Under the pieces are notes generated by a model. It saw only the letters and a program-made list of their open reading frames with translations, ran no database searches and was not told where the DNA came from. Source: a virus. Taken from it: a stretch of 64,000 bases of DNA. This document shows, one piece after another, positions 425 through 46,238 of the stretch. The position numbers and the translations under genes are program-made. Where the stretch lies: the IMG/VR virus record IMGVR_UViG_3300007609_000013, positions 10,129-74,128 of that record; one strand, 5' to 3'. Position 1 is the stretch's first letter, and every line of letters begins with the position of its first letter.

Positions 425-865
425 ATGGCTAGAAAATTTGCACAGGGTAAGTTTTATCCTAAAAACCCAAACAAATATGTAGGCAAAAAAAATCCAACCT
501 ATCGCAGCAGTTGGGAGTGGGCTTTTATGAACTTTTGCGACAACAATCCAGCAGTGCTTCAATGGGCAAGTGAATCTGTAAGCATACCCTATAAAAATCC
601 ATTTGATGGAAGAAACACTATCTATGTTCCAGATTTTTTTATAGTATACACTGATCGCAACGGTGCTAAAAACGCAGAGCTTATAGAAATCAAACCAAAA
701 AAACAAACCACACTGGAAGCAGCAGGACGCAGCAAAAAAGATCAAGCCAGTGCAATTCTCAACGCAGCAAAATGGCAGGCTGCCAATGCGTATGCTCGAC
801 AAAATAGAATTAAATTTAGAGTGGTAACAGAAGAAGAACTATTTCATCAAGGCGGAAAAAAATGA
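425..865 (+). CDS. head completion nuclease, T4 gp4-like (TnsA-like PD-(D/E)XK)
   Basis: PKNPNKYVG, YRSSWE, IPY, YVPDF, IEIKP and KW.AA motifs typical of gp4. Confidence 0.85.
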   Translation: MARKFAQGKFYPKNPNKYVGKKNPTYRSSWEWAFMNFCDNNPAVLQWASESVSIPYKNPFDGRNTIYVPDFFIVYTDRNGAKNAELIEIKPKKQTTLEAAGRSKKDQASAILNAAKWQAANAYARQNRIKFRVVTEEELFHQGGKK

Positions 866-9781: not shown

Positions 9782-10847
9782 GGTTGATTTTTATTCGGTG
9801 GTGGTTTCTCACCTGTGATGTAGACTCCACGCTCTGATCTTTCCACACACCACAGGTGTTTTCGCATCTGCTGCATCTACCTTTGTCAACACTGGATTGT
9901 TGCCAACTGTGTTCCAACTGTTGAAACCATTTTATACTTTTGGCCAGCCCGTGGCGCAGTGCATTGTTTCTCCGAATAAACTTTCTCAGCTGAACAGTTT
10001 CTGGATTGTAAACTGAGTAGTCCGGATTGGCAAATGCAGTAAAACAACAGGGATACACAAAGCCCCTGCTGTCCACATATATGCTGTTGATGTGACTGCA
10101 ATCTATGCTATCAGCTGGACGACGGGATGCGGGCATGTGTTTCCCTGTGTCGGTTTGGTCATAGGCCAGGATCCTGCTGACACGGGCATAATCCGTGTCA
10201 CCTTGCCAATCTCCAATGGTGTGTGAGAGGTTGCCGTCTTTGTCAAATGCTATGCCTACACTGCGCCCGTGATTTTCCATGGAGAACAAGGAAAAGCCCC
10301 AAGCATCGGCCAGCTGTTGAGCCTGAGCTGCTTGATGCTGGTTGTGATCAAACACTATGAACTTCCACTGTGCATCTCCTCCTGCAGCTATGAAAGCACC
10401 AAAATTTCTCTGCAGCACCTGCCAGTCCACATCCTGCCGATAGAGATGATTGGTGTCTTCCAAGCCGTCTATGCTGAATCTCACAGTCAAGTTGGGCACA
10501 GCAGCCAACTGTTGCCACCATGTCTCGCTTCTAGCGCCACCATTGGTGGTTACTTCCAGCTTCAACTGTGGGTTGGCCTCAGCAAAGTACCACAGTATGT
10601 CCGCCAGCTGAGGATTCATAATAGGATCGCCAAAGTTGCCTTCGCAGAGGAATAACTCTAGCTCGCTGATAAACTCTGCGGAGAATATTTGTTTGACCTC
10701 TGCCAATGACAGATGATGCTGAACCACTCTAGGATCTGCCACACCGTGATCATTTCTAGGACAGATAGGACATCTGGCATTGCAGTAGCTGGTGGGTTCT
10801 AGATGCACTCTGCGTATTTCTGCACCGCTGCTGAAACTGGTTTTCAT
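9771..10847 (-). CDS. radical SAM protein with SPASM/twitch-like C-terminus
   Basis: CNARCPIC motif, GNFGDP, FSIDGL, YPCC; start at MKTSF, 5 nt after TAAATA. Confidence 0.85.
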   Translation of the reverse strand: MKTSFSSGAEIRRVHLEPTSYCNARCPICPRNDHGVADPRVVQHHLSLAEVKQIFSAEFISELELFLCEGNFGDPIMNPQLADILWYFAEANPQLKLEVTTNGGARSETWWQQLAAVPNLTVRFSIDGLEDTNHLYRQDVDWQVLQRNFGAFIAAGGDAQWKFIVFDHNQHQAAQAQQLADAWGFSLFSMENHGRSVGIAFDKDGNLSHTIGDWQGDTDYARVSRILAYDQTDTGKHMPASRRPADSIDCSHINSIYVDSRGFVYPCCFTAFANPDYSVYNPETVQLRKFIRRNNALRHGLAKSIKWFQQLEHSWQQSSVDKGRCSRCENTCGVWKDQSVESTSQVRNHHRIKINLKE

Positions 10848-41804: not shown

Positions 41805-42809
41805 ATGTACGTAGAAGATTACATAGATTTATTAGCAGGAAAGATTGCTTGCGAGCACTGCAACAACTATGATATTGTAAAACTTGCAAAATACGATTAT
41901 AGCCCTGTGAGAAATATTTCTCGAATTGTAGAATCTGACAGAGGACTGTCAGATCGCCAACGAGAACTTGCAATAAAAATTGTGCATACCTATCGTCGTC
42001 AATTTGCCAAACACGGTTACGACTGTGAGCACGTTGTTGAAAATCCCAAATGGAGAAGTCCACTAAGAACAGTTGATAGAACCAAGCTGGTTTGTATCAA
42101 GGACCACAGGTTGACAGTTAAATTTCCATTTGAACCCACAATGGTAGACCATTTTAGAAATCTACAGAGATATAGTTCAGAAAAATATCCTTGGATAGGC
42201 GAAATTGAGTGGAACAAAACTGAAAAACACTGGACTTTTTGTTTGACAGAACACAATATGCTGGGAATTTACAACCTAACAAAAAATAAAAATTTTGAAT
42301 ATTGTAATAATTTTAACACTATCATAACTAAAATTTTAAAGGTCAAAAAAAGCAAAAACGCTTACCAAATAATCTGTGACATTGTGGATGGAAAAATCAA
42401 AATACACAATGCCAGTGAAAGTCTGCAACAGTCATTTGATGCACAAGTCACAGGAGACTTGTTGCTGGATATCGGGCTTGCCAAACGCTTAGGAGTAAAC
42501 AAGTATAGTTTGTCTGTGTTAAGATATCTCCGCAAGAAAAATCCTTTGCTGGTAAAACTGGTGGCAAAAAGAGTTCTGTGGTTTAAAAAATCCAGTTCGT
42601 TGCATGAAATAAGTGCACTGGCAGACGATATAGGACTGTTGCCCATGGGGAATCACACACACTATGATCCTCCAAAATCTGTTTTTTTCAAAGAAACAAT
42701 CTACGGATTGAAATCAAAATATCTTGAACAAAGGGTATCACTTGTGTTATACTGTACTCAATATGCGCCATGGGGTATTGAAGACGCATATTACTTGGAA
42801 GGTTATTAA
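41805..42809 (+). CDS. hypothetical protein upstream of uvsW
   Basis: 334-aa ORF, LSDRQ..LA.KI..TYRRQ. Confidence 0.7.
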   Translation: MYVEDYIDLLAGKIACEHCNNYDIVKLAKYDYSPVRNISRIVESDRGLSDRQRELAIKIVHTYRRQFAKHGYDCEHVVENPKWRSPLRTVDRTKLVCIKDHRLTVKFPFEPTMVDHFRNLQRYSSEKYPWIGEIEWNKTEKHWTFCLTEHNMLGIYNLTKNKNFEYCNNFNTIITKILKVKKSKNAYQIICDIVDGKIKIHNASESLQQSFDAQVTGDLLLDIGLAKRLGVNKYSLSVLRYLRKKNPLLVKLVAKRVLWFKKSSSLHEISALADDIGLLPMGNHTHYDPPKSVFFKETIYGLKSKYLEQRVSLVLYCTQYAPWGIEDAYYLEGY

Positions 42810-43834
42810 TGGCTACGGCAAAAATTATTGTCAAAGACGAAGTAAACTGTAAGATCGAAGGTCTCGATCTCATGGATCGCAAAAAACTTGTGCAGAAGTT
42901 CAAGTATGAAGTTCCATATGCAAGACATTTGCCTGCTGTAAAGTTGGGTAGGTGGGACGGAAAAATAGCATTTTTTCAAATGGGCGGAAGCACATACATC
43001 AATCTATTGCCGGATATTTTGCCTTACTTGGACCAAGCTGGATATGATATTGAGCTAGAAGATTACAGAGAATACAAAACAGATTTTGAGTTTGAAAAAA
43101 TCACCGAGCACAGTTACAATGATAGAGTATGGCCGCCAAAGCATCCAGCAGAAGGCCAGCCTATTACACTGAGAGACTATCAAGTGGATGTGGTTAATAA
43201 ATTTTTGCAAAATCCACAGAGTCTACAGGAAGTGTCAACAGGTGCCGGAAAAACCATTATGACTGCTGTGCTCAGCGACCAGTGCGAAAAGTATGGCAGA
43301 ACAATTGTGATTGTGCCCAACAAGGATCTTGTGAGCCAAACAGAAGCTGATTACAAAAACATGGGACTGGACGTTGGAGTGTTCTATGGAAGCAAAAAAG
43401 AGTTTGGCAAAACACACACAATCTGCACATGGCAAAGTTTAAACAGTTTGCTTAAAAAGACCAAAAACCAAGAAGCTCCTATCACAATTGGAGAGTTCTT
43501 AGAGGACGTGGTAGCAGTCATAGTGGATGAATGTTTTGATGGAGATACTCTTATTACTACGACTCGAGGCAAAACGCCTATTAAAAATTTGAAAGTAGGC
43601 GATAAAATAATAAATCTCTGCGAAAAAACAAAACAATATAAAGAAGATACCGTTGCCAAAGTTCATAAAAATCTAACACACAGCGAAAGTGAAAAGATGT
43701 TAGAATTGGAATTTGACAACGGTATAAAAACTCAAGTCACTGCTAATCACAAATTTCTAACAAACAAAGGATGGATTAGAGCAGACGAATTAACAGATAA
43801 TTTAGAAATTATTGACATAAATACATACGGCTAA
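42809..43834 (+). CDS. uvsW: UvsW-like SF2 helicase N-terminal half plus split intein N-fragment
   Basis: LRDYQ, STGAGKT, VIVDE then CFDGDTLI...TANHKF (intein blocks A/B) from 43532. Confidence 0.9.
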   Translation: MATAKIIVKDEVNCKIEGLDLMDRKKLVQKFKYEVPYARHLPAVKLGRWDGKIAFFQMGGSTYINLLPDILPYLDQAGYDIELEDYREYKTDFEFEKITEHSYNDRVWPPKHPAEGQPITLRDYQVDVVNKFLQNPQSLQEVSTGAGKTIMTAVLSDQCEKYGRTIVIVPNKDLVSQTEADYKNMGLDVGVFYGSKKEFGKTHTICTWQSLNSLLKKTKNQEAPITIGEFLEDVVAVIVDECFDGDTLITTTRGKTPIKNLKVGDKIINLCEKTKQYKEDTVAKVHKNLTHSESEKMLELEFDNGIKTQVTANHKFLTNKGWIRADELTDNLEIIDINTYG

Positions 43835-44847
43835 AGGAGATGTATTTATGGCAAAGCAGTTCGATACGGAACGATTTAATAGAATTTTGAGAGAACACAA
43901 CCAACAACTTCGCGCAGAAAAAATAACTGGTAAGCAAGTTGTTTTATCAAATGGGCTTGTTTTAGATTTGAAAAAAGAAGTTGATCGTTGTAAAAAAAGA
44001 GTTTTGTCAGGACACGATATTTGGAAAAATAATTTCGATCAATTATATTCACTTGATCAACACAAAAGAATTTCTACAGAAGCAGAATGTAAAAGTTTAA
44101 TATCAAAAATTGGAGGTATAAACTGTCAAAGAAAGCATGGCGAAAAAGTAAAGTTCAATTTGAATACCGGTATTCCGTGGAATAAAGGAACCAAAGGAAA
44201 TTACCCTTATTCTCATCAACATTCTAAACAGACCAAGGAAAAAATAAGTAATGCCAATCTTGGACAAAAAAACGGAATGTTTGGCAAGAAACTCTCTGCA
44301 GAACAAAAAGCAGAAAAAAGTAAAAAAATGAAAGAATTAATTTTGTCAGGTAAATTTACTCCTAACTCCAACAACAGAAACACTCATTGGGAATCTTTTT
44401 ATAATAACAAAAAATATAGAAGTTCTTGGGAAGCATTGTATCAGTATTTGGACAATCAGGCAGAATACGAAACGCTCAGAATTCCTTATATTTTTGACAA
44501 TCAAAATTATGTTTACATTGTAGATTTTGTAAACCATGAAACTAAAACAGTAGTTGAAGTAAAACCACAAGAACTTATTAATGACAAAAAAACACAGGCA
44601 AAAATATCTGCCGCAAAAAAATGGTGCAACGATAACGGATACGTATTTGTGTTAGCAGATAAGAATTATTTTATTTCTCGTCCAATACCTAAGGATTTAA
44701 CAGGGTTTGATATTAAAACTCAAAATAAAATTAGGAAAATTTATGAAATTGGTTAACAAAAAAGAAATTGAAAAACCACAAGAAACATATAATTTGCACA
44801 TAGAACAGGATCATAATTACATTGCAAATGATGCTGTAGTATCAAAT
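43532..44847 (+). mobile_element. split intein with an intervening free-standing endonuclease gene
   Basis: IntN 43532-43831, endonuclease 43848-44756, IntC 44743-44847; AT-richer than flanks. Confidence 0.88.
43848..44756 (+). CDS. putative homing endonuclease: NUMOD3-like repeats plus TnsA/gp4-like nuclease
   Basis: PWNKG, HS..TK.KIS, YRSSWE, IPY, YIVDF, VEVKP, K..AA..WC; own TAAATA and AAGGAG. Confidence 0.8.
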   Translation: MAKQFDTERFNRILREHNQQLRAEKITGKQVVLSNGLVLDLKKEVDRCKKRVLSGHDIWKNNFDQLYSLDQHKRISTEAECKSLISKIGGINCQRKHGEKVKFNLNTGIPWNKGTKGNYPYSHQHSKQTKEKISNANLGQKNGMFGKKLSAEQKAEKSKKMKELILSGKFTPNSNNRNTHWESFYNNKKYRSSWEALYQYLDNQAEYETLRIPYIFDNQNYVYIVDFVNHETKTVVEVKPQELINDKKTQAKISAAKKWCNDNGYVFVLADKNYFISRPIPKDLTGFDIKTQNKIRKIYEIG

Positions 44848-45585
44848 TGCCACCAAGCCAAAGCAGATGCTCTAAAAACACTGCTCACAGGTGTGATGTC
44901 GCACATACCCATTAGATGGGGACTCACTGGCACAGTACCAAAGGAAGACTTTGAATTTGTGGGCATTAAAGTTTCTCTTGGAGATGTGATCAATCGTGTT
45001 GCAGCCAGCGATCTGCAAAGCAAAGGCGTGCTGGCAAACTGTCATGTTAATATTGTGCAAATGATTGATCATGCCGAGTATCGCGATTATCAAAGTGAAC
45101 AAAAATACTTGCTCACAGATGATGCCAGATTGGACTACATCAGCACACTTGTACAGGAAGTGAGAAACACAGGCAATACACTTATATTGGTAGACAGAAT
45201 CAGCTCGGGCCAGGCACTGGTAGATAAAATACCAGGCGCGGTGTTTATATCTGGCGAAGTAAAAAGCGAACAACGCAAAGAACACTATGATGAAATTGCA
45301 GACACACAGGACAAAGTGATTGTTGCCACATACGGAGTCGCTGCTGTTGGCATTAATATACCTCGCATCTTTAATCTTGTGCTTATTGAACCAGGCAAGA
45401 GTTTTGTTCGAGTGATTCAAAGCATAGGCAGAGGCGTAAGAAAAGCCAAGGACAAAGACTTTGTACAGATATGGGATATCACCAGTACTTGCAAGTTTGC
45501 CAAGCGACATTTGACCAAACGAAAACAGTTTTACAAAGAAGCGAACTATCCATTTGCAATTGAAAAGGTAGATTGGAAACTATGA
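44743..45585 (+). CDS. uvsW: split intein C-fragment plus UvsW C-terminal half
   Basis: MKLV...TYNLHIEQDHNYIANDAVVSN|CHQ; GLTGT, ATYG.AAVGINIP, QSIGR. Confidence 0.9.
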   Translation: MKLVNKKEIEKPQETYNLHIEQDHNYIANDAVVSNCHQAKADALKTLLTGVMSHIPIRWGLTGTVPKEDFEFVGIKVSLGDVINRVAASDLQSKGVLANCHVNIVQMIDHAEYRDYQSEQKYLLTDDARLDYISTLVQEVRNTGNTLILVDRISSGQALVDKIPGAVFISGEVKSEQRKEHYDEIADTQDKVIVATYGVAAVGINIPRIFNLVLIEPGKSFVRVIQSIGRGVRKAKDKDFVQIWDITSTCKFAKRHLTKRKQFYKEANYPFAIEKVDWKL

Positions 45586-46238
45586 CGAAACCAACATTGT
45601 TAATTTCTGGGGATAGCTATATGGCTCTTCATAAAGACGGAATAGGCACACCAGAAAGTGTAGAGAAAGATAATCAAATTCATTGGTCTAGACATTTAGA
45701 TCCTTATTTTGAAATCCAAAATGTAGCAAAGGCAGGAAGTTCAAACACTTCAATTGTGTATAGGCTGGTAGAGGCAATTAAAAAACAAAAACCAGACTAC
45801 ATTCTAATAGGATTCACTGATTATGCTAGACTAGAGTACAATAAATATGAGACTAATTGTCATCCTAGCATACAGAAAGATAAATCTGCATACAATGCCT
45901 GGAAACAGTATATCAAATATGCAGACGATGATTACATGCGATATAAAAGTATGGCGATTATCGAATATGCGGTTACCTTAGCAAGATCAATTGCTCCAAC
46001 ATGTTTTGCTCTTAACCTGTTAAACCCATCGGACAGCGACTGGTCATTTTACAACAAACACCAGTTTATGATTAATTTTGAGAAAGAATCTTTGCCGGTG
46101 AATTTAAGTGATTATCCAGAAATTAGTTTAAACGACCCTAATTGGAAAAGTTTTCATGTGGTCGACCCAAAGGTTCACGAAAAATTTGCTGAAACTATCC
46201 TAGACGAATTCAACATTTGCAAATCAGACAAGGTATAA
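45582..46238 (+). CDS. SGNH-like protein
   Basis: SGDSY, NVAKAGSSN, FH......H. Confidence 0.6.
   Translation: MTKPTLLISGDSYMALHKDGIGTPESVEKDNQIHWSRHLDPYFEIQNVAKAGSSNTSIVYRLVEAIKKQKPDYILIGFTDYARLEYNKYETNCHPSIQKDKSAYNAWKQYIKYADDDYMRYKSMAIIEYAVTLARSIAPTCFALNLLNPSDSDWSFYNKHQFMINFEKESLPVNLSDYPEISLNDPNWKSFHVVDPKVHEKFAETILDEFNICKSDKV

Follow-up and report, generated by a model that had tools for sequence, protein, structure and literature searches.

The uvsW gene in a 64,000-nucleotide (nt) stretch of viral DNA (positions 10,129 to 74,128 of IMG/VR record IMGVR_UViG_3300007609_000013; hereafter the window) is, with high probability, a functional fractured gene whose product is made by protein trans-splicing. 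A class-1 split intein lies in helicase motif II, and a free-standing endonuclease gene lies between the two intein halves. The split-intein reading is based on the motif content of the halves, their similarity to inteins of solved structure, the HINT fold predicted for a contiguous homologue (locus L007), the intein-less genes of close relatives, purifying selection, and the lack of intron-like RNA. We infer splicing, as well as the activity and target of the endonuclease, from sequence. The window is a piece of a 74-kb contig with an estimated completeness of 21%, indicating a fragment of a giant-phage genome. A megablast search against 50,697 phage records found no near-identical phage DNA, and thus no close cultured relative.

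Layout of the fractured uvsW locus

The locus consists of three open reading frames (ORFs) on one strand, each in a different reading frame. Their parts are listed below; a slash marks a splice junction, and IntN and IntC are the N- and C-terminal intein fragments.

42809-43834, + strand: ORF1, 341 amino acids (aa), UvsW N-extein plus IntN; reads ...EDVVAVIVDE/CFDGDTLITTTRGK...INTYG, then stop
42809..43531, + strand: UvsW N-extein, aa 1-241, with Walker A STGAGKT; its C-terminus VIVDE is the first half of the DExH motif II
43532..43834, + strand: IntN, 100 aa, ORF1 residues 242-341, from Cys1 (CFDGDTLI) to INTYG, then TAA at 43832-34
43816..43850, + strand: hairpin of 11 bp; 5' arm within the IntN tail (CATAAATACAT, which includes TAAATA), 3' arm with the endonuclease ATG
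43848-44756, + strand: ORF2, free-standing putative homing endonuclease, 302 aa, with NUMOD3 and PD-(D/E)xK domains
44743..44847, + strand: IntC, 35 aa, MKLVN...DHNYIANDAVVSN
44848..45585, + strand: UvsW C-extein, 245 aa, beginning with Cys+1-His (second half of DE-CH), with Helicase_C; stop codon included

The Cys1 codon starts at nt 43532, directly after VIVDE. ORF3, read from the ATG at 44743, is MKLVNKKEIEKPQETYNLHIEQDHNYIANDAVVSN/CHQAKADALK..., i.e., the 35-aa IntC, Cys+1, and 244 more helicase residues. When the exteins are joined (241 + 245 aa), a protein of 486 aa and 55.1 kDa results, with DECH in motif II as in T4 UvsW. An earlier note on this DNA, made from the sequence alone, had described ORF1 as ...VIVDE/CFDGDTLI with a 100-aa IntN, and ORF3 as starting at ATG 44743 with a 35-aa IntC ending VVSN/C. 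These coordinates and sequences hold, and the restored DE-CH and the length of 486 aa follow from the translation. Its proposal of a naturally split intein in motif II, with a free-standing endonuclease between the halves, agrees with the domains, the PHROG matches, and the recurring layout described below, which together go well beyond chance.

As judged from sequence, the host gene is a UvsW-type superfamily 2 (SF2) helicase. The N-extein matched Pfam ResIII and DEAD, as well as the T4 UvsW structures 1rif (E 6e-6) and 2oca (E 2e-5). The C-extein matched Pfam Helicase_C and aligned with 2oca starting at Cys234 of DECH (E 2e-16). The UvsW N-terminal domain PF21241 scored 19.6 bits, under its 25.3-bit cut-off. 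The nearest cultured-phage homologues, including those of RaK2, Atu_ph07, PA5oct, and CBB, carry a uvsW annotation. Both outer ORFs matched existing PHROG families: residues 4-336 of ORF1 aligned with positions 4-328 of the 330 positions of phrog_16259 (helicase N-half plus intein; E 9e-62), and phrog_9690 (intein C plus helicase C-half) covered ORF3 end to end (E 7e-57).

Both intein halves carry conserved splicing motifs

IntN begins with block A (CFDGDTLI) and contains block B as T70-A-N-H73 (TxxH). Comparison of both fragments with intein profile models, which the earlier note had proposed, gave Pfam matches in both halves. IntN matched Hint with 30.5 bits, over the cut-off, and Intein_splicing was matched, below its threshold, by ORF1 (model positions 7-89, 28.0 bits) and by ORF3 (model positions 126-155, 14.1 bits). 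In the Protein Data Bank (PDB), the solved structures most similar to IntN were those of the NrdJ-1 split intein (E 3e-5) and of the DnaB mini-inteins from Npu and Ssp. IntC matched best the Npu DnaE C-fragments 4lx3_B and 4qfq_B; at E 0.16, this similarity is too low to predict cross-reactivity.

The residues needed for splicing are strongly conserved. Among 113 IntN homologues, Cys1, Thr70, and His73 were invariant (100%), and in 92 of them IntN was exactly 100 aa long. In ten related loci, IntC always started with MKL, contained DHNY, and ended with the terminal Asn followed by Cys-His. The penultimate IntC residue of the window is Ser, not the His that is common but not obligatory in block G. 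The earlier note gave this residue correctly, and Ser is usual here among split inteins: the position holds Ser or Ala in the ten related loci and His in Salmonella phage S16 (see below), and the well-characterised naturally split intein of Npu DnaE has an aligned Ser (...NDAVVS in the window pairs with ...NGFIAS). The penultimate Ser is therefore no argument against activity.

The ratio of nonsynonymous to synonymous substitution rates (dN/dS) against four relatives was 0.06-0.17 for IntN, 0.04-0.27 for IntC, and 0.13-0.19 for the endonuclease, which places all three under purifying selection. A natural contiguous allele of the intein, from locus L007, was modelled and adopted a HINT fold (predicted local distance difference test [pLDDT] 85; predicted template modelling score [pTM] 0.82). 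Template modelling (TM) scores of 0.82-0.87 were obtained when the model was superposed on the NrdJ-1 fusion and on the DnaB mini-inteins of Ssp and Npu.

Empty, contiguous, and split alleles occur at the same site

We examined eighty related viral contigs for the state of the insertion site. Intein-less uvsW alleles, which the earlier note had suggested looking for in related phages, were found in most relatives. The closest extein relative, L012, has an uninterrupted gene that reads VIVDEVHQAKADAL, with DEVH in motif II; its product is 91% (N) and 93% (C) identical to the exteins of the window. Most other relatives also had an empty site with DEVH, and L061 had an empty site with DECH.

Occupied sites were of several kinds. 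A split intein with a homologous endonuclease was present in L006, L011, L013-15, and L017-19. A contiguous mini-intein of ~142 aa occupied the same site in L007, L008, and L009, and full-length cis proteins of 619-637 aa were represented by P0246, P0247, and P0249. Two forms were split without an intact endonuclease gene. In L016 (2540-2600), IntN and IntC are separated by no more than a short spacer and two stop codons; in L010 (2040-2100) and P0026, the last ~16 endonuclease codons remain, fused to IntN. Judging from these sequences, the gene remains split once the endonuclease is lost.

No fewer than eight independent contigs showed the three-ORF layout, as did the cultured phage S16. In eight metagenomic loci, the endonuclease gene has its own Shine-Dalgarno-like sequence and its stop codon overlaps the IntC start; in five of the eight, the same 13-nt spacer comes after IntN. 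IntN was found in 145 public protein clusters (90% identity clusters, E <= 0.001), and among the 120 IntN clusters listed, identity to the window reached 91%.

A second, contiguous intein was observed in UvsW motif I (ATGAGK/C...HHN/T) of the metagenomic N-halves P0037, P0096, P0098, P0101, P0245, and P0248. This intein comes in two sizes, as a mini-intein of ~165 aa or as a form of ~375 aa with a LAGLIDADG endonuclease, and it occurs besides the split intein at motif II. This makes UvsW an intein hotspot in these phages. In the 74-kb contig, no intein was found beyond the uvsW locus.

The endonuclease has a TnsA/gp4-like nuclease domain

ORF2 has two parts. The N-terminal one is a DNA-binding region with NUMOD3 (Pfam, aa 123-154, 33.4 bits, over the cut-off). 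The C-terminal one (aa ~175-285) is a PD-(D/E)xK nuclease domain, in which Pfam Tn7_TnsA-like_N (PF08722) matched aa 208-269 with 36.8 bits against a 26.5-bit cut-off. ORF2 matched phrog_22417 (E 2e-44) and had 485 homologue clusters. In an alignment of 28 homologues, E195 (RSSWE), D226 (YIxDF), and E237 and K239 (ExKP) were invariant; by sequence, they represent the canonical PD-(D/E)xK signature.

The AlphaFold model of ORF2 had a pLDDT of 86.6. By fold, its C-terminal domain came closest to TnsA (Z 8.5 over 136 residues), followed by VRR-NUC, then Vsr (Z 6.0) and I-Bth0305I (Z 5.8). PDB sequence and profile searches revealed no relative of ORF2 and no match to 3r3p or 1cw0, so that solved relatives came from fold comparison only. 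Judged by its invariant residues, the profile searches, and the fold, ORF2 was provisionally kept apart from EDxHD, because its signature and best matches are TnsA-like. By sequence and model, ORF2 is a TnsA/gp4-like PD-(D/E)xK enzyme, which we could not place among the GIY-YIG or Vsr-like EDxHD types of fractured genes.

The window also contains a gp4-like head-completion gene at 434-853 (+ strand; phrog_218, E 3e-46; PF08722, 78 bits). The nuclease domain of ORF2 is 32% identical to its product over 121 aa. Both proteins match PF08722 and phrog_218, and they have the motifs YRSSWE, IPY, DF, and E-x-KP in common. A PD-(D/E)xK domain is thus common to the putative homing enzyme and a core protein of virion assembly. 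Apart from this gene, a relative of the nuclease domain, no endonuclease paralogue was found in the 74-kb contig.

Expression signals at the ORF junctions

ORF2 begins 13 nt past the ORF1 stop and is preceded by an AAGGAG Shine-Dalgarno sequence. The hairpin at 43816-43850 has a minimum free energy of -12.7 kcal/mol (z -3.1 against shuffles), and its loop contains the IntN stop codon together with the AAGGAG. A stem of 9-11 bp was found again in eight related loci, and no hairpin was found in S16. Since the stem is partly coding (DINTY), its conservation is not independent evidence. The hairpin may have a regulatory role, limiting endonuclease translation.

At the other end, the end of ORF2 and the start of ORF3 have 14 nt in common. 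The IntC ATG falls within conserved Tyr-Glu codons of the endonuclease, which suggests translational coupling and may help to explain why Tyr-Glu is invariant in the endonuclease. Upstream of uvsW, a 334-aa ORF (41805-42809) was observed, whose stop codon overlaps the uvsW start (TAATG, 42806-42811); this overlap also suggests translational coupling, in one operon.

The cassette is mobile and occurs in phage S16

The insertion, i.e., IntN, endonuclease, and IntC, is much better conserved than its host gene. Between the window and L013, IntN is 85%, the endonuclease 70%, and IntC 94% identical, vs. 55% and 66% for the exteins. With 30.5% GC, the cassette differs from the exteins (41.9%) and from the window as a whole (41.3%). 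Being AT-rich and so much better conserved than its host gene, the cassette is a mobile element; its base composition is foreign and its distribution patchy.

Salmonella phage S16 (NC_020416), a T4-like Gelderlandvirus, carries the same cassette, inserted at the same position, and there it spans gp114, gp114.1, and gp115. S16 gp114 ends ...MMNDE/CFDGDTLIKTPNG..., and gp115 reads ...MRLKSIKEIKKPDVVYNLHVKTNHNYFANGALAHN/CHLATGKS. IntN is 61% and IntC 51% identical between S16 and the window, and gp114.1 matches ORF2 with 41% identity across 209 aa (E 7e-45). The exteins of the two helicases are just 24-25% identical, and a homologous cassette in such different hosts indicates that homing has carried it horizontally between phage lineages that differ greatly. 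In the S16 records, the genes are annotated merely as "DNA helicase", "hypothetical protein", and "UvsW". By sequence, the element was thus already present, unrecognised, in PHROGs and in the GenBank records of S16 and related phages.

In T4-like phages, homologues of the endonuclease were also seen to interrupt the gene for the large terminase, namely, in Yersinia phage phiR1-RT (L091, NC_019909, 1429-4278) and Shewanella phage Thanatos-2 (L090). In phiR1-RT, g166 ends ...IYIDE/CVSKDTKV... with an N-fragment of ~33 aa, g167 is the endonuclease, and g168 contains a C-fragment of ~108 aa (...NNVESHN/CAFIPNF). The two halves are annotated just as two "terminase large subunit" coding sequences. 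Their sequences indicate an atypically split intein, inserted again after the DE of Walker B.

Proposed mechanism and alternative explanations

We propose the following model. A mobile cassette was inserted between the Glu and Cys codons of motif II (DE/CH), and its mini-intein is split by the endonuclease gene. One operon would give rise to three polypeptides: UvsW(1-241)-IntN, the endonuclease, and IntC-UvsW(242-486). Together, IntN and IntC would form a HINT fold that performs protein trans-splicing, in which Cys1 would undergo an N-S acyl shift, Cys+1 would mediate trans-thioesterification, and the terminal Asn would cyclise. The products would be the 486-aa UvsW with an intact DECH motif and the released intein. 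The endonuclease would cut the intein-less uvsW of co-infecting phages, whereupon recombination would copy the whole cassette (homing). By burying the endonuclease start codon, the hairpin may delay or limit endonuclease translation.

Three observations weigh against this model. First, the Intein_splicing scores on both halves (28.0 and 14.1 bits) are under the gathering threshold of 35.8 bits; such scores are expected because each ORF has only half of the domain. Second, the HINT model is that of a homologue, L007 (IntN 61%, IntC 66% identical to the window). Third, a co-conversion tract, looked for in 45 nt on each flank, gave no clear signal; the coordinates of the intein loci were offset by one codon upstream, which makes this comparison uninformative.

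Instead of being spliced, the UvsW halves might assemble non-covalently through the intein fragments, which would then be remnants serving as interaction domains. A precedent is reported for the NrdA of phage Aeh1, which is split by a homing endonuclease gene and whose pieces come together through interaction domains that a mobile element contributed (PMC3045599). We consider this very unlikely for UvsW. The strict conservation of Cys1, TxxH, the terminal Asn, and Cys+1 would be unneeded for docking alone, and non-covalent assembly would leave a domain of ~135 aa inside the ATPase motif II. Moreover, the contiguous alleles of this intein must splice to yield a working UvsW.

Equally improbable, in our view, is that uvsW is decaying, having been inactivated by the insertion and being no longer used by the phage. 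Insertions of selfish elements are able to kill genes, and with 21% of the genome at hand, a second helicase could be encoded elsewhere. Against decay, both exteins are full length and 91-93% identical to the intact relative, the intein halves are under purifying selection, and the arrangement persists in many lineages, including the viable cultured phage S16.

We give still less weight to an assembly or sequencing artefact, with the endonuclease domain in truth nested in a single contiguous intein. The contig does come from a metagenome, but the artefact would require one stop codon plus two frame changes, and the same three-ORF layout would have to be in error in all of the independent contigs and in S16. 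IntN also ends at exactly 100 aa in most homologues, and among six longer homologues, none had a PD-(D/E)xK domain nested in a contiguous intein, which is weak evidence.

Least credible is a group I or group II intron with an endonuclease ORF, removed at the RNA level: phage homing endonucleases are often intron-encoded, but the ORF ends encode intein blocks A, B, F, and G in full, none of which an intron would need, and L016 and L010 still keep split intein halves without the endonuclease. RNA-level splicing, which the earlier note had named as an outcome that would speak against its reading, was rejected because no Rfam family, introns included, matched 42600-45800 at E <= 1.

Trans-splicing of a fractured uvsW thus remains our preferred explanation. 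Beyond it, we put forward a broader reading, to which, taken as a whole, we give a real chance, although one short of even. According to it, ORF2 would belong to an undescribed lineage of homing endonucleases that combine a gp4 (TnsA-like) PD-(D/E)xK domain with NUMOD-type DNA-binding modules. This lineage would drive split inteins into the Walker-B DE/C of phage ATPases, namely, UvsW (here and in S16) and the terminase of phiR1-RT-like phages. The intein itself would represent a new, abundant split-intein family with cis, trans, and endonuclease-free forms. If this is true, the family would be useful for orthogonal ligation and would document the fracturing of genes directly.

The locus extends the fractured-gene phenomenon to UvsW, a recombination and repair helicase. 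The element is widespread, being present in giant phages, in T4-like Salmonella phages, and in hundreds of metagenomic clusters. If splicing holds, the helicase activity and the roles in recombination-dependent replication and repair ascribed to T4 UvsW would depend on trans-splicing. The empty, contiguous, and split alleles with and without endonuclease at one site provide a natural series against which to test the model that inteins and genes are broken by endonuclease invasion. With its compact fragments of 100 and 35 aa, Cys1 and Cys+1, and its distance from Npu DnaE, gp41-1, and NrdJ-1, the split intein is a candidate tool, and a cultured-phage homologue exists in S16.

Comparison with known systems

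Fractured phage genes with split inteins are well established, as the earlier note had pointed out for gp41, NrdJ, and DnaE: Dassa et al. 2009 (PMC2677866) described gp41-1, gp41-8, NrdJ-1, IMPDH-1, DnaE, NrdA, ligase, and terminase, and also noted hairpins upstream of the endonuclease ORFs. UvsW is absent from the host types named there. Another described case is jumbo phage MIJ3, whose PolB is split, with an HNH endonuclease. In the searchable literature (subscription-only papers, such as the original description of S16, lie outside it), no paper pairs "split intein" with "UvsW", none of the papers checked with "intein" and "UvsW" describes the uvsW element, and none was found that describes a gp4/TnsA-like endonuclease as a homing enzyme. 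The suggestion of the earlier note that UvsW is an unusual host is therefore correct for this literature but not for sequence data, in which S16 and the 145 IntN clusters carry the element.

The window resembles the fractured genes of Dassa et al. in that the N-half with IntN, a free-standing homing endonuclease gene, and IntC with the C-half lie on one strand of phage DNA, in that the host is an enzyme of DNA metabolism, and in that a hairpin precedes the endonuclease gene; the best solved relative of IntN is NrdJ-1, one of that set. It differs in its host, UvsW, and in its endonuclease, which is TnsA/gp4-like with a canonical D...ExK and which we could not assign to the GIY-YIG or Vsr-like EDxHD types found there. 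What is new is an abundant split-intein family, in a host unreported in the searchable literature and with a different endonuclease type; the layout was already known.

With S16 and other Gelderlandvirus phages, the window shares the insertion site (MMNDE/C ... AHN/CH in S16), the homologous intein and endonuclease, and the three-ORF layout. In contrast to the window, S16 has a penultimate His, no hairpin, and overlapping ORFs, the IntN stop overlapping the endonuclease start. Its host helicase is of the T4-like type, whereas that of the window is of the giant-phage type.

Npu and Ssp DnaE are likewise class-1 inteins with Cys1 and Cys+1 and a similar split position, and Npu DnaE has an alignable IntC DHN block and a penultimate Ser. 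The DnaE split fragments comprise about 102 and 36 aa, compared with 100 and 35 aa in the window. Unlike uvsW, DnaE is another host gene, and its two loci are distant from each other, with no endonuclease between them.

The endonuclease has counterparts of two kinds. Like I-Bth0305I of the EDxHD type (PMC3239194), ORF2 combines an N-terminal NUMOD-type DNA-binding region with a C-terminal nuclease of the restriction-endonuclease fold, and both enzymes are found in fractured genes. In contrast to the Vsr-type Asp/His/Asp set of I-Bth0305I, ORF2 has the invariant E195, D226, E237, and K239, and it gave no sequence or profile match to the I-Bth0305I structure 3r3p. Finally, T4-type gp4 is a single-domain protein of ~150 aa that acts in virion assembly, whereas ORF2 adds an N-terminal DNA-binding region of ~170 aa to the related nuclease domain and resides in a mobile cassette.

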